Shown one piece after another: positions 8,501-25,078 of a DNA stretch of 64,000 nt. Both the position numbers and the translations under genes were made by a program. The notes beneath the pieces were generated by a model. The model was not told the origin of the DNA. It did no database searches and saw nothing but the letters and a program-made list of their open reading frames with translations. Source of the DNA: Escherichia virus TH40; the sequence record MT446411.1. One strand, written 5' to 3'. The stretch's first letter is position 1. Each line of letters starts with the position of its first letter.

Positions 8501-8815
8501 TCAAGCTTTAGGGAAATCGCGCAAAAATGCATCATAAAGTTTATTACCAATGCGACGAAATGCTTTTGCTGCATGAACGTTATCTGGGTTTGCAATTTTA
8601 ATCTGCATTACATGACTACCAGCCCATGATTTAGCTTCGTCATAATAACCTTTAATTTCTTTAATAGTCTTGCGTTTTCCACCAGGACCATCAACAGTAA
8701 TTTTCCACGAACCAGTGCTTGTTTCACTTGGTGGGGTTAACTGTTCAATCCAGACATAACCACCTTCAACACGTTGTTGAGTAGATTCAGTAATAAATTC
8801 TTGATAAGTTTTCAT
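8501..8815 (-). CDS. internal-protein-like head protein with CTS
   Basis: ATG at 8815 gives MKTYQEFITEST...; track start 8854 is an upstream extension. Confidence 0.7.
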   Translation of the reverse strand: MKTYQEFITESTQQRVEGGYVWIEQLTPPSETSTGSWKITVDGPGGKRKTIKEIKGYYDEAKSWAGSHVMQIKIANPDNVHAAKAFRRIGNKLYDAFLRDFPKA

Positions 8816-17745: not shown

Positions 17746-17805
17746 TTCGGATGTACACTACTTTTTGAAGAAATATTAAAAATAAACCCGCCGGAGCGGG
17801 TTTGA

Positions 17806-18360
17806 TTAGTTCTTATAAAAACGGAAGGGATTGATATGAAAGGCTAACATAGCTTTCGGGATAGGACGGGACAGAAGACTTTTTAGCTTCCAACCACAAT
17901 ACACGCGCAGATAAAAGGTGATTCCACCAACTTTAAGATAAGGTACGGAAGCGAACACGCCCCATGCATTATCATTCCACATCCAGAGCCAGCCATGGTG
18001 AGCTTTATCCGGGGAGCCCGATTCAACATCAGGATTACCTTTATAATGGAATTTAGAATCACAATCGCGGCCCAGCTTATGATAAGCAAAATTGTAGGCT
18101 TTGTTTCGCCAGAGCCAGGCCACTCGCTGGAAGTAAACGCCTAACGGCCATTTTCTGATTTTTTCCCAGCGTTTAACATGACCACGGTCGCCATCAATTG
18201 GGTTGTCGTATGTCATCATCCAGTCAAATCCAAACGGAAGCTTACCAGTCTTTTTGTTATGGAACGGCACTACAAATGGTGTAAGGATAACAGCCAGAAT
18301 CATGGAGATAAAATCCAGTGGCACTAACAGAATCCAGCTTAGATATTTTAAAAGTTTCAT
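17806..18360 (-). CDS. hypothetical protein with N-terminal transmembrane segment, late-promoter driven
   Basis: 184 aa; N-terminal ILLVPLDFISMILAVILTPFVV; TATAAATA about 27 nt upstream on minus strand. Confidence 0.55.
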   Translation of the reverse strand: MKLLKYLSWILLVPLDFISMILAVILTPFVVPFHNKKTGKLPFGFDWMMTYDNPIDGDRGHVKRWEKIRKWPLGVYFQRVAWLWRNKAYNFAYHKLGRDCDSKFHYKGNPDVESGSPDKAHHGWLWMWNDNAWGVFASVPYLKVGGITFYLRVYCGWKLKSLLSRPIPKAMLAFHINPFRFYKN

Positions 18361-18386
18361 AAATTTCCTTAGTTATGGGTACGTTA

Positions 18387-18394
18387 TATTTATA
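18387..18394 (-). promoter_or_regulatory. T4-type late promoter motif TATAAATA
   Basis: exact TATAAATA on minus strand (plus tatttata) immediately after terminator hairpin and before ATG 18360. Confidence 0.5.
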
Positions 18395-18396
18395 AA

Positions 18397-18425
18397 AAAG
18401 CCCCAACCTTTCGGAAGGGGCTATA
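18397..18425 (-). terminator. intrinsic terminator
   Basis: minus-strand GCCCCttccgaaaggttGGGGC followed by TTTTTT. Confidence 0.55.
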
Positions 18426-18459
18426 CCTTGTCGGGGTTCCACCTGCAAGGCAAGTGTTC

Positions 18460-18843
18460 TTATCCGCGGGCGAATGCCATTGCAGCGCGTTCGTTGGCAC
18501 GGTCAGTGATGTTCAAGAATTTATCACGAGCGATTTCGATTGGAGCGCCAACCCAGTCAGCGGCTCCATTACCTGGAGATTGTTTAGGACGAACCATATA
18601 AGTTGAAACTTTGGAACCAGCTAGTTTAGCACCAGGTGCAGCGGCATTCTTAACGTCTTTAGCTTTGATACCAAAACCAGTTACAATGCCCCAAGAAACA
18701 CCATTAACTGGTTTCTTGAACATAACACGGTCGCCAATTGAAACCCCAGCTTTTTCTGGAGCTACTAAAGAAAATTTACCGGCTTCAGTCAGTACGGATT
18801 CGGTGATGGTATTGCGATTTAAAAATTCTGCATATGTAAGCAT
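18460..18843 (-). CDS. candidate internal protein with degenerate CTS, late-promoter driven
   Basis: 127 aa; N-terminus MLTYAEFLNRNTITE resembles CTS MKTYQEFIAE and carries an I-T-E cleavage motif; TATAAATA upstream. Confidence 0.5.
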   Translation of the reverse strand: MLTYAEFLNRNTITESVLTEAGKFSLVAPEKAGVSIGDRVMFKKPVNGVSWGIVTGFGIKAKDVKNAAAPGAKLAGSKVSTYMVRPKQSPGNGAADWVGAPIEIARDKFLNITDRANERAAMAFARG

Positions 18844-18874
18844 TTTGTTTTTCCATTATTAGGGTTGTTGTTAA

Positions 18875-18882
18875 TATTTATA
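18875..18882 (-). promoter_or_regulatory. T4-type late promoter motif TATAAATA
   Basis: minus-strand ggaaTATAAATAttaac about 32 nt upstream of ATG 18843. Confidence 0.5.
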
Positions 18883-18892
18883 TTCCATAGTA

Positions 18893-18945
18893 CCGGATGC
18901 ACCACCCGCTCGGATTTCTCATACTACCGGGCGCACCGCCCGCTC
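18893..18945 (-). repeat. tandem direct repeat (two ~24-nt GC-rich units, each a short hairpin)
   Basis: plus taccggatgcaccacccgctcgg ... taccgggcgcaccgcccgctctgg separated by 11 nt. Confidence 0.6.
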
Positions 18946-19084
18946 TGGAAAAACTCCGTAAAAGGTGCGCCGTTTCAGCTGTGATATAAGGGGCCATTAA
19001 CAAAACATAAAGATTTATTAATGTCAGTCCTTAAACAGGGAACTTCAGTCCGACGACTTACCGGTAGCGACCCGGTTTCTTGTT

Positions 19085-19160
19085 TGGTCGAGACAGTAGG
19101 AATCGAACCTACGACCCAGGACTTAGAAGGTCCTTGCTCTTCCTTCTGAGCTATGCCTCG
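19085..19160 (-). tRNA. tRNA-Arg (anticodon UCU)
   Basis: 76-nt cloverleaf folded by hand: acceptor CGAGGCA/TGTCTCG, D-arm GCTC-AGAAGGAA-GAGC, anticodon stem AGGAC/GTCCT with loop CTTCTAA, T-arm GTAGG-TTCGATT-CCTAC, encoded CCA. Confidence 0.8.
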
Positions 19161-19293
19161 TGCTTGTTCATAGCGGGGTGGACTCGAACCACCAATATTA
19201 AGTCACTCATGCTCCAAGCATGCAGGGCACTTACCCCGGACGGAATCGAACCGCATCTACAATACCTATCGCCATGATAATTTAAAATAAGTT
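19161..19293 (-). ncRNA. unresolved tRNA-like / small stable RNA region
   Basis: two T-arm-like motifs (GGTTCGATTCC, GGTGGTTCGAGTCCACC) but no canonical cloverleaf could be folded by hand. Confidence 0.25.
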
Positions 19294-19367
19294 TGGTGGC
19301 CCTGGGTGGAATCGAACCACCATCCAGCGATTATGAGTCGCTCGCTTGACCGTCCAGCTACAGGGCC
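19294..19367 (-). tRNA. tRNA with CAU anticodon (Met, or Ile if lysidine-modified as in T4)
   Basis: 74-nt cloverleaf: acceptor GGCCCTG/CAGGGCC perfect 7 bp, anticodon stem AGCGA/TCGCT with loop CTCATAA, T-arm GGTGG-TTCGATT-CCACC, encoded CCA. Confidence 0.75.
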
Positions 19368-19445
19368 TTAATTCTATTATGAAAGGCTCTTTGAGGGAAG
19401 AACCTTTGGTAATAGAGGGTACTTATTAATAATAACGCGTTTTTA

Positions 19446-19922
19446 TTAAAGCATATCAAGTGCTTTAACGTTCAGGATTTGGATTTCTTCTTCGATGATG
19501 TATAATTTCACCCACGAAACTACGCGTATAAAATCACTATCATATTCCACTGGCTCGCCCAGCAATTCCTGGAGAGAACACAATAATTCAAATTCCTGGT
19601 CATTGTCACCTTCAACCAGATTTTCAATACAAAGTGTTTTGTTAATGAATTCAGGAGTTAATTGACCAGATTTTACACCAGATTCAATGTGTGCGATAAT
19701 CAAGTCTTTAACTATGTCCCATTCTGAATTACCACATTTATTGCGGTTATTACAATGAGAGCCTTGAAAAAGTTCCAGGATATATTTGTACTGCTGGATT
19801 TCTTGTTCTTCTACACCAAATATTGTCTGGGTTTTATAGTTGTCACCATCATTTTCCAAGGTTTCAATTTCAATCACATAACCTTTAGGGATGGTCTGAC
19901 CAAATTTAATATTCATAATCAA
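19446..19922 (-). CDS. hypothetical acidic protein
   Basis: 158-aa ORF. Confidence 0.5.
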   Translation of the reverse strand: MIMNIKFGQTIPKGYVIEIETLENDGDNYKTQTIFGVEEQEIQQYKYILELFQGSHCNNRNKCGNSEWDIVKDLIIAHIESGVKSGQLTPEFINKTLCIENLVEGDNDQEFELLCSLQELLGEPVEYDSDFIRVVSWVKLYIIEEEIQILNVKALDML

Positions 19923-24632: not shown

Positions 24633-25078
24633 CCTTTCCATCCTAATTTTTTCAGTGAGTTTTCAGTGATTATCCTGAACGTTATACCCATCTTATCCGC
24701 GGTAGCTTGCGCAGCTTTCCATTTGTCAGAGTTAACGCTCCAGGTGTACATCTCGTTAATAAATCTCTTTTTACTCGCGGCTGTATTATTAACCGGTTTG
24801 GTTGGAGGTCTTGTTTCTTTTAATGGCTTAACTTCAAAAAAGAACTGTTGTCCTGTATCAAACTTAACCCAGAAATCCATATAATATCTGCGCTTTTTCC
24901 CTTCAGCATTGCAGAAGTATGGAATAATCACAGTCTCAGAGCCCCATTGAACAACGTTCGGATGGTTGTCGAGCCATCTCATCAACCAAGCCTCCCAGCT
25001 TGACCGGTATTGTATTTTCTTCCAGTCGCCCTTATATTTTTCTATATTAGTGGGCTTAAATTTCCCGGAGTATGCCAT
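24629..25078 (-). CDS. 4: head completion protein gp4
   Basis: 149 aa at divergent junction with gene 53 as in T4. Confidence 0.8.

Follow-up and report, generated by a model that had tools for sequence, protein, structure and literature searches.

A predicted rnaD ortholog abuts the putative leader of a late-gene cassette downstream of tRNA-Arg in Escherichia virus TH40

The stretch of Escherichia virus TH40 DNA analysed here (sequence record MT446411.1; 64,000 nucleotides (nt), hereafter the window, to which all coordinates refer) contains, downstream of a tRNA-Arg gene, an interval of 241 nt (18844-19084) that carries a GC-rich repeat. All genes of this part of the window are encoded on the minus strand. 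As judged from sequence comparisons, this interval is composite and is made of two unrelated elements that abut at 18963/18964, namely an ortholog of the phage T4 gene rnaD (species 2 RNA) at 18964-19084 and the leader of an inserted gene cassette at 18844-18963. This anatomy is highly probable. The proposed role of the leader is more tentative, and is given odds somewhat short of even: it would occlude the ribosome-binding site of the cassette gene on read-through RNA, whereas the late RNA would escape this occlusion. Taken together, anatomy and mechanism form the best overall explanation of the interval, with a probability of roughly 0.5.

Composition of the interval

The two halves of the interval have different phylogenetic distributions, which argues for two elements rather than one RNA. 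Indeed, when 50,697 phage records were searched with the 241 nt (blastn), 732 of them matched; 15 of these had a query cover of more than 80%, and the remaining records align only to query positions 121-241, which correspond to window 18964-19084. A single structured RNA of 240 nt was rejected on the basis of this difference (more than 700 records for the rnaD half versus 15) and of the folding energy of the 241 nt, which is unexceptional compared with shuffled sequences (z = -1.33). A Rfam scan up to E = 10 returned two tRNAs only, and no other known RNA family in the interval; Rfam contains no family for rnaD. The original prediction, which was made from the sequence alone, had described the region as free of open reading frames (ORFs), and this is borne out: no conserved ORF crosses the interval, and the small ORFs present in it are disrupted in close relatives by 1-nt indels and by the loss of an AUG. 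A coding role was thus rejected, as the small ORFs of both strands are broken in relatives and the plus-strand coding sequences given in two records differ in length.

The interval and its surroundings comprise the following features:

19294-19367, minus strand: tRNA-Met (ARAGORN and Rfam)
19085-19160, minus strand: tRNA-Arg, anticodon UCU (ARAGORN; Rfam tRNA model, 66.1 bits)
18964-19084, minus strand: predicted rnaD ortholog, 121 nt (homology, position and covariation)
18460-18963, minus strand: insertion cassette of 504 base pairs (bp), with leader, late promoter and 127-amino-acid (aa) ORF including its stop codon
18844-18963, minus strand: cassette leader, non-coding
18946-18954, minus strand: candidate anti-Shine-Dalgarno (anti-SD) arm GUUUUUCCA, with a conserved GGAG before the arm
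18920-18945, minus strand: repeat unit 1 GAGCGGGCGGUGCGCCCGGUAGUAUG, with hairpin H1 at 18928-18942 (CGGGCG-GUG-CGCCCG)
18886-18911, minus strand: repeat unit 2 GAGCGGGUGGUGCAUCCGGUACUAUG, with hairpin H2 at 18894-18908 (CGGGUG-GUG-CAUCCG)
18875-18882, minus strand: T4-type late promoter TATAAATA, between the two arms
18847-18855, minus strand: ribosome-binding region UGGAAAAAC, with GGA 8 nt before the AUG at 18843
18460-18843, minus strand: 127-aa ORFan, N-terminus MLTYAEFLNRNTITE
18394-18456, minus strand: conserved 3' flank of the insertion site, with a hairpin and an intrinsic terminator; the next late promoter follows

The rnaD ortholog

The original prediction had suggested that the region encodes a counterpart of the small stable RNAs that T4 carries beside its tRNA-Arg. 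This suggestion stands for the half that adjoins the tRNA, which corresponds to rnaD, and fails for the GC-rich repeat, which lies outside both stable RNAs. In T4, the gene order is tRNA-Arg, rnaD (119 nt, 'species 2 RNA') and rnaC (139 nt, 'species 1 RNA'). T4 rnaD aligns with window 18964-19080 at 84.7% identity over 118 nt (blastn, E = 1e-30). Phage RB27 is 94.9% identical to the window across rnaD and tRNA-Arg, and its matching stretch, located between tRNA-Arg and rnaC, is annotated 'ncRNA rnaD, species II RNA'. The homology begins at 19084, the first base 3' of tRNA-Arg(UCU), and RB27 and T4 are arranged alike. This tRNA, whose CCA is encoded, is the last of the operon and the neighbour upstream of rnaD.

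Structure comparison with covariance, which had been proposed as a check of the homology with the T4 stable RNAs, gave a positive result, as the rnaD helices covary. Indeed, RNAalifold predicted 16 pairs from 18 distinct rnaD homologs, and the window copy keeps every one of them. Its parts are (i) a 5' hairpin, P1 (~19060-19076), (ii) a long-range closing stem of 7 bp, formed by positions 28-34 with the 3' end, (iii) an inner stem and (iv) a central hairpin of type A. Among the homologs, pair 9/25, which closes the 5' hairpin, is A-U in 13, G-C in 3 and G-U in 2, and the inner-stem pair 41/112 is A-U in 8 and U-A in 8. All the defining features that could be tested are found in the window copy, and the rnaD half is an already known kind of element. 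From its homology and position, it is predicted to yield an RNA of ~120 nt that is co-transcribed with the phage tRNAs and cut from the precursor directly 3' of tRNA-Arg. In T4, a discrete stable RNA of ~119 nt has been reported for rnaD in infected cells (PMC9697503), and the function of RNAC and RNAD is still called unknown in reviews and recent papers (PMC3014915, PMC9697503, PMC12685909).

The central domain of rnaD (window 18990-19035) exists in three unrelated versions, all of them hairpins, enclosed between a conserved 5' part of 49 nt and a conserved 3' part of 30 nt (loci L004, L006, L012, L015, L016, L018, L019, L023, L034 and L035). Given these three unrelated versions, rnaD appears to be modular, with a middle part that is exchanged among phages independently of the flanking alleles. 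Furthermore, a 79-aa ORF is located between tRNA-Arg and rnaD in MN01 (L001 2181-2420), VR20, P896 and DK-13; its stop codon abuts the conserved rnaD start, and the tRNA-Arg and tRNA-Met of these relatives are different sequences. Because this ORF and these different tRNAs occur in the closest cassette relatives, the 5' side of rnaD is likewise considered to be an exchange point. The exact combination present in the window at the rnaD/cassette locus was found in no phage record.

The insertion site and the missing rnaC

In the Dhakaviruses VR5 and JS98, window positions 17805-18459 and 18964-19916 align to directly adjacent bases. Since the flanks are contiguous in these phages, the window carries a clean insertion of 504 bp at 18460-18963, which starts at the base after the annotated 3' end of rnaD and ends with the stop codon of the ORF. 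In RB27 and TH22, rnaC (~146 nt) is present between the same two flanks. According to these alignments, the rnaC site is a three-allele hot spot that holds nothing, rnaC or the cassette, and this single junction with its three alleles recurs over ~30 loci. On the transcribed strand and with a caret marking each junction, the empty allele reads ...AACGGCGCACC^GAACACTTGCC..., the window reads ...GCGCACC^TTTTACGGAG...GGATAA^GAACACTTGCC... and RB27 and TH22 read ...GCGCACC^(G/T)AATTA-rnaC-...TTTCGTAC^AAACACTTGCC... The 3' flank is homologous in all three alleles and comprises a 7-bp hairpin (18440-18456, CACUUGC-CUU-GCAGGUG), a strong intrinsic terminator (18394-18422, AGCCCCUUCC-GAAA-GGUUGGGGCU followed by a U-run) and, downstream of the latter, the next late promoter (TATAAATA, 18387-18394). 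The terminator-like fold was also seen as a sub-threshold alignment with the NsiR1 family of Rfam.

The repeat half and the ORF were found in 15 phage records only, which are all of the Gaprivervirus type and at least 95.9% identical, and a few metagenomic contigs also carry the cassette. The reservation that the repeats might not be conserved in related phages therefore holds in one sense, the repeat half being restricted to these 15 records; it is accompanied by the cassette in all of them. The cassette adjoins all three types of rnaD central domain and two tRNA arrangements, and thus appears to recombine freely. In a Logan contig (SRR14369232; L033 1-260), a divergent cassette ORF with 88% amino-acid identity is truncated after 53 codons and directly followed by a NUDIX gene, so that the cassette also occurs rearranged elsewhere.

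Because the cassette occupies the rnaC junction, the phage is considered to have rnaD but not rnaC. A blastn comparison of T4 rnaC with the whole window gave no match better than E = 3.4, and the global alignment of 18844-18963 with RB27 rnaC scored 54.5, compared with 50.3 +/- 6.5 for shuffled sequences. Within 18844-18963, there is no tRNA or tRNA-like match to E = 10 (Rfam) and no T-arm motif of the GGTTCGAATCC type. The hypothesis that the repeat half is a diverged rnaC was rejected on the basis of this shuffle-like alignment score, of the missing blastn match and of the missing T-arm.

Conservation of the leader and the late promoter

The leader is strongly constrained. Indeed, 7 of its 115 columns vary (6%), versus 35 of the 73 four-fold sites (48%) of the adjacent ORF (Fisher p = 2e-11), and no variation is seen over the 38 nt that lead from H2, past the promoter, to the ribosome-binding site. 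In the intergenic region that follows the ORF, 23 of 99 columns vary. The four-fold sites of the DUF7338 gene were tried as a second neutral control and left unused, the alignment being unreliable.

The promoter of the next gene had been placed inside the region by the original prediction, and it is found there, as the TATAAATA motif located at 18875-18882 on the minus strand, 31 nt before the ATG at 18843. This motif occurs at 21 sites in the window, compared with 5.3 expected, and all of them are co-oriented with genes; the cassette copy is invariant in all relatives. The 5' end of the late transcript would be located at ~18868, so this RNA would lack the anti-SD arm and both hairpins. Because the late promoter lies downstream of both hairpins, these should be present only in transcripts that read through from the operon. 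A GGAG sequence located at 18956-18953 (minus strand), between rnaD and H1 and just before a U-run, is invariant in 11 of 11 leader variants. GGAG is the motif cut by the T4 endoribonuclease RegB, and this position could be a processing site that separates rnaD from the downstream RNA.

The repeat units and the twin hairpins

The repeat itself is real, and its units are slightly longer than first described: they measure 26 nt, contain the 23- and 24-nt strings of the original prediction, and are 8 nt apart rather than strictly head-to-tail. They form the one direct-repeat family detected (18886-18911 and 18920-18945, 85% identical, with a period of 34 nt), and the degenerate 26-mer matches only these two sites in the 64 kb, with 0.00 expected from shuffles. 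On the transcribed strand, unit 1 reads GAG-CGGGCG-GUG-CGCCCG-GUAGUAUG and unit 2 reads GAG-CGGGUG-GUG-CAUCCG-GUACUAUG. Each can form, as had been anticipated, a hairpin on the minus strand, with a 6-bp stem and a GUG loop. The energies of H1 and H2 on this strand (-11.4 and -7.3 kcal/mol, respectively) are not outstanding when compared with shuffles (z = -0.9 to -1.6). Since neither the 241 nt nor the hairpins beat shuffled sequences, the case for structure rests on covariation and not on energy.

Over the 11 distinct leaders, pairing is 100% in H1 and H2 and drops to 32-55% with sliding partners, and all 30 stem cells pair in the five versions of the unit that are known. In particular, (i) pair 4/12 of H1 is G-C in 5 of the 11 leaders, A-U in the other 6 and never unpaired, (ii) pair 4/12 of H2 is A-U in 9 leaders and G-U in 2 (the window and TH44), and (iii) pair 5/11 is C-G in H1 and U-A in H2, which is a double compensatory change. 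Within the hairpins, three columns vary, and each of them belongs to a pair. The unpaired unit flanks (GAG..GUASUAUG) are conserved and the loop is invariant. Owing to its G-U pair, the H2 stem of the window is strand-specific (-7.3 kcal/mol on the minus strand versus -1.9 kcal/mol on the plus strand). Overall, these sequence comparisons provide good but not overwhelming evidence that the hairpins are RNA structures of the transcribed strand, not overwhelming because the independent events are few.

Several other identities of the repeat were considered and rejected. No match to an E. coli REP-like or host-derived repeat was found in 5,426 E. coli genomes or plasmids. A dispersed repeat family was discarded as well, since scans of IMG/VR, metagenomes and GTDB yielded one further true copy (L053) and isolated chance matches in GC-rich DNA. 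A cis-element tied to the protein family was rejected, because the remote homologs of the cassette protein, P0003 and P0004, are accompanied by late-promoter-like sequences without hairpins. Furthermore, a promoter scan of the minus strand (18300-19600) revealed no sigma-70 promoter, middle promoter or intrinsic terminator at the hairpins, and a manual check found no -35 box or MotA box at a usable distance from the TAGTAT and TACTAT hexamers.

A possible occlusion of the ribosome-binding site

It is proposed that the leader may function as a cis-acting RNA of the transcribed strand. Read-through transcripts of the tRNA/rnaD operon would contain the whole leader, which may fold into a compact multi-helix domain composed of H1, H2, a middle helix and an outer helix; in the outer helix, GUUUUUCCA would pair with the ribosome-binding site UGGAAAAAC. 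On such a read-through RNA, the 127-aa gene would not be translated and the stable-RNA precursor would be buffered from the mRNA located behind it. With the late promoter inside the fold, the transcripts initiated there would start past the anti-SD arm and the hairpins, would have a free ribosome-binding site and would give the protein late in infection. Late expression would fit a protein that has an N-terminus like that of the T4 internal protein IPI and that is perhaps packaged into heads likewise.

In support of this mechanism, GUUUUUCCA (18946-18954) is a perfect 9-bp Watson-Crick complement of UGGAAAAAC (18847-18855). A duplex of at least 9 bp was obtained in 29 of 5000 dinucleotide shuffles. 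Among the 15 genes of the window that have a late promoter, the cassette gene has the longest such complement, and of 110 ORF starts, a single one attains 9 bp. When RNA was folded from the cassette start, the probability of the outer helix was 0.7-0.97 for most 3' ends, and the GGA of the Shine-Dalgarno (SD) sequence was predicted to be unpaired at less than 10% in the read-through RNA versus ~20-40% in the late RNA. Mutation of the arm in silico frees the SD sequence; an earlier in silico arm-swap design was judged uninformative, new pairings being created. RNAalifold on the 11 leaders independently predicted the outer anti-SD:SD helix, H1, the middle helix (UAGUAU with AUAUUA) and an extended H2, and the late promoter TATAAATA sits between the helix arms. 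The evidence from relatives is mixed: 96% of the cells of the outer helix are paired, with one G-C to G-U change, and 3 of the 11 leaders have uncompensated 1-nt indels.

A number of observations weigh against the occlusion model. Few independent events underlie the covariation, and the sequences compared are at least 96% identical. The outer helix consists largely of A-U pairs. Its duplex energy of -11.4 kcal/mol is ordinary, being reached by 63 of 1000 shuffles, and three other late genes of the window score better in duplex energy. The helix is shortened, without compensation, by the loss of an A in MN01 and TH55 and by an extra U in TH54. In TH44, each of the two substitutions located outside the hairpins disrupts one pair of the middle and extended helices. 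With longer 3' extents, little of the predicted occlusion remains in 4 of the 8 relatives tested (MN01, TH44, TH54 and P8). A local helix between GGAGUUUUUC and GAGAAAUCC competes with the outer helix, forms first during transcription and wins in some contexts. The arms are ~90 nt apart, which is far beyond the known local examples, and both the read-through and the transcript ends of this phage are inferred. Finally, the replacement of H1 and H2 by unstructured linkers in silico (nearest-neighbour model) leaves the outer helix unweakened. The idea that the hairpins act as clamps needed for the anti-SD helix was rejected on this basis, and the model explains the conservation of the hairpins and of their flanks only in part, because the linkers do not weaken the helix.

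Elsewhere in the window, the late genes that start at 25078 (minus strand), 48051 (plus strand) and 61350 (plus strand) have an initiation region complementary to the 95 nt upstream of the late start, with duplexes of -16 to -20 kcal/mol, and are possible further cases of occlusion on read-through RNA.

Alternative explanations for the hairpin segment

The main rival explanation, which is rather unlikely and could also coexist with occlusion, is that the twin hairpins have no part in translation and instead protect the stable-RNA precursor against decay from the 3' side or mark where it is processed. After cleavage, 3'-to-5' exonucleases would stall at H2 and H1, which would spare rnaD and the tRNAs from degradation along with the inserted mRNA, and the cassette would thereby restore the 'hairpin soon after rnaD' that is supplied in the empty and rnaC alleles by the 18440-18456 hairpin and the terminator. 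Intercistronic hairpins are able to stabilise upstream RNA, as E. coli REP elements do, and a stable structure is present 3-22 nt after rnaD or rnaC in all three alleles. The hairpins are, moreover, conserved as strand-specific RNA structures, dispensable for the anti-SD helix in silico and located upstream of the late start, so that only operon read-through RNA would contain them. However, this explanation accounts neither for the conserved unit flanks (GAG..GUASUAUG) nor for the invariance of the 38 nt that follow downstream; energies of -7 to -11 kcal/mol make for modest barriers, and unless the 22-nt spacer is cut by an endonuclease, the hairpins would also impede the trimming that gives the mature CACC end. 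It is improbable that, as a modified form of the original prediction would have it, the ~85 nt separating rnaD from the late promoter give rise to a discrete, stable double-hairpin RNA, which would be a non-homologous functional substitute for rnaC. The segment occupies, within the same transcription unit, the exact position of rnaC; its conservation is strong and its stems are kept paired, its structured ends would protect it, and the AU-rich single-stranded flanks and the conserved 5' GGAG could be endonuclease sites. Nevertheless, it does not resemble rnaC, it lacks its own terminator as well as a T-arm/acceptor domain to recruit RNase P as in rnaC, and its conservation runs on through the promoter and the 5' untranslated region, beyond any plausible small RNA. 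Furthermore, it is found nowhere without the ORF, and this constant association favours a gene leader over an RNA gene that stands on its own. If ~18886-18963 were indeed a stable RNA replacing rnaC, the three interchangeable alleles would offer a natural genetic handle on the purpose of the T4 stable RNAs.

It is equally improbable that the repeats have no RNA function and are either past or present points of DNA recombination for cassette shuffling, as has been proposed for the stem-loops of promoter-early stem-loop (PeSL) cassettes and for T4 deletion end-points, or a relic of the donor. H1 does contain GGGC...GCCC, a motif noted for T4 deletion end-points and for the stems of PeSL cassettes (PMC2839356), the element borders an indel within a hyperplastic region, and the cassette recombines freely among three rnaD types and two tRNA arrangements. 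Yet the cassette junction is 22 nt upstream of H1 and not inside it, and no second copy of the motif is present at the other end of the cassette, elsewhere in the window or in related genomes; in addition, the compensatory and wobble changes, together with the strand asymmetry, indicate that an RNA stem is under selection, and an eight-fold stronger conservation than at synonymous sites would not be expected of a relic. The least probable explanation, which is very unlikely, regards each unit as a binding site for a phage or host protein, on DNA or RNA, the pair forming an operator beside the late promoter. Two copies with conserved unpaired flanks and an invariant loop, a spacing of 34 nt that approaches three helical turns and a position immediately upstream of the promoter would suit such an operator, and the ORF product is weakly predicted (all matches being non-significant) to form an SH3/KOW/Tudor-like beta-barrel, a fold that often binds nucleic acids. 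On the other hand, half-site symmetry would not select compensatory pairs, the remote homologs of the ORF have late-promoter-like sequences without such hairpins, and no candidate binder was identified; T4 late promoters are not known to need upstream sites.

The cassette protein and neighbouring genes

In 16 genomes, the ORF located behind the leader varies at 42 of its 127 third codon positions versus 4 of its 254 first and second positions, and encodes 3 distinct proteins. As the variation falls almost only at third codon positions, this pattern of substitutions identifies it as a real gene, under strong purifying selection. The protein has no match in Pfam and PHROG, and an exhaustive HMMER search retrieved two remote relatives only (P0003 and P0004, 42-47% identity). 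The cassette protein and these two relatives all begin with M-x-T/S-F/Y-x-E-F-L/M (MYTFKEFLVE.. in P0003 and MKSFKEFMLSE.. in P0004), and the start of the cassette protein, MLTYAEFLNRNTITE-SVLTE, can be compared with that of T4 IPI, MKTFKEFTSTTTPVSTITE. This N-terminal motif is one that we take to be a capsid targeting sequence. I/L-x-E motifs, the type of site at which the prohead protease cleaves, are present at residues 13-15 and 18-20, and the N-terminal 32 residues are predicted to be disordered. AlphaFold models were useless from the single sequence (pLDDT 36) and mediocre from three sequences (pLDDT 60), and a Foldseek search with the ORFan model returned SH3/PWWP/KOW-like matches only, all non-significant. 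Because of its IPI-like N-terminus, its disordered first 32 residues and its late promoter, the ORFan is a candidate packaged internal head protein. Internal head proteins have been described as diverse apart from their capsid targeting sequence (PMC3012670).

Other small ORFs of the window, starting at 8815, 8487, 20777, 21075, 21356 and 21697 (all on the minus strand), have IPI-like N-termini of the MKTYQEFI.E type (MKTYQEFINE, MKTYQTFINE and similar) and form two clusters near the tRNA region; from these N-termini, they are likely to be a set of variable internal head proteins. Downstream of the cassette, the gene at 17806-18360 (minus strand), which has its own TATAAATA (18387-18394), encodes a DUF7338 / phrog_2143 protein, whose ortholog is labelled 'holin' in two phage records without visible support. 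Upstream of tRNA-Arg, the 133 nt that separate it from tRNA-Met (19161-19293, minus strand) contain two T-arm-like segments (19176-19194 and 19238-19256), and neither ARAGORN nor Rfam calls a tRNA in 19161-19293. RB27 has tRNA-Tyr and tRNA-Asn at the equivalent place, and VR5 has the same tRNA-free gap. According to weak local alignments, the two segments are probably decayed tRNA genes.

Implications

The T4 stable RNAs have been unexplained since the 1970s, and rnaC and rnaD are among the oldest unexplained RNAs of molecular biology. The comparisons reported here indicate that rnaD is kept in every T4-like lineage examined, with a central hairpin that is modular and can be swapped, and that rnaC is optional, being inserted at a hot spot with three alleles, where a protein-coding cassette can replace it. 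That rnaC is optional while rnaD is kept argues that the two RNAs do not have to work as a pair. The leader, a short non-coding element under strong constraint, is conserved about eight-fold more than the adjacent synonymous sites and may offer a new case of the T4-like silencing of an inserted late gene on read-through RNA. The cassette gene may join the diverse internal proteins that are injected, those of T4 including an anti-restriction factor. None of this would greatly surprise a T4 specialist; the leader is unusual in its long-range multi-helix layout with a pair of conserved hairpins.

Comparison with known systems

The window copy of rnaD resembles T4 rnaD in its position, strand, length (121 versus 119 nt), conserved ends and paired helices, and differs from it in nothing essential. 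It is followed by the gene cassette instead of rnaC, and its central hairpin is of type A, whereas other relatives carry two unrelated versions. The likeness of the leader to T4 rnaC is limited to its location, as the repeat segment starts where rnaC would start, right after rnaD. Indeed, rnaC has a tRNA-like T-arm/acceptor domain and ends with CCGGGTTCGAATCCCGG..., while the leader has none of these, is continuous with a promoter and an ORF and shares no sequence similarity with rnaC.

As in the PeSL cassettes of T4-like hyperplastic regions, GC-rich stem-loops and a promoter travel with an ORFan as an indel that distinguishes close relatives. However, the promoter of the cassette is a late one, there is neither a sigma-70 promoter nor a U-tract terminator, and the window, like each related genome, has the motif at one site only. 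Because the motif is not repeated elsewhere in the genome, recombination of the PeSL type would be impossible for it, and membership in this class was rejected (no sigma-70 promoter, no terminator, no other copies). The ORFan resembles the T4 internal proteins IPI, IPII and IPIII in its N-terminus, its I/L-x-E motifs, its late promoter and its location in a tRNA/internal-protein region among similar ORFs. It differs from them in lacking sequence or fold similarity beyond the N-terminus.

By analogy, the leader would work most like the T4 late-gene leaders that hide the ribosome-binding site. T4 e, soc, 49 and I-TevI are documented cases in which this site is sequestered on early or middle read-through RNA and a late promoter within the structure yields translatable RNA; the same arrangement is reported, or at least implicated, for segB, a gene inserted in the T4 tRNA operon (PMC3014915; PMC2988022). 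The cassette leader shares with this group (T4 e, soc, 49, I-TevI/II/III and segB; Aeh1 mobE) an upstream segment complementary to the SD sequence, a TATAAATA promoter placed so that late transcripts would lack the 5' arm, and a gene located downstream of genes expressed earlier, segB being likewise inserted in a tRNA operon. The known cases are single local hairpins, whereas in the cassette leader ~90 nt separate the arms, between which two conserved GC hairpins and another helix are located; its predicted outer helix is also A-U rich and weakened in some natural variants.

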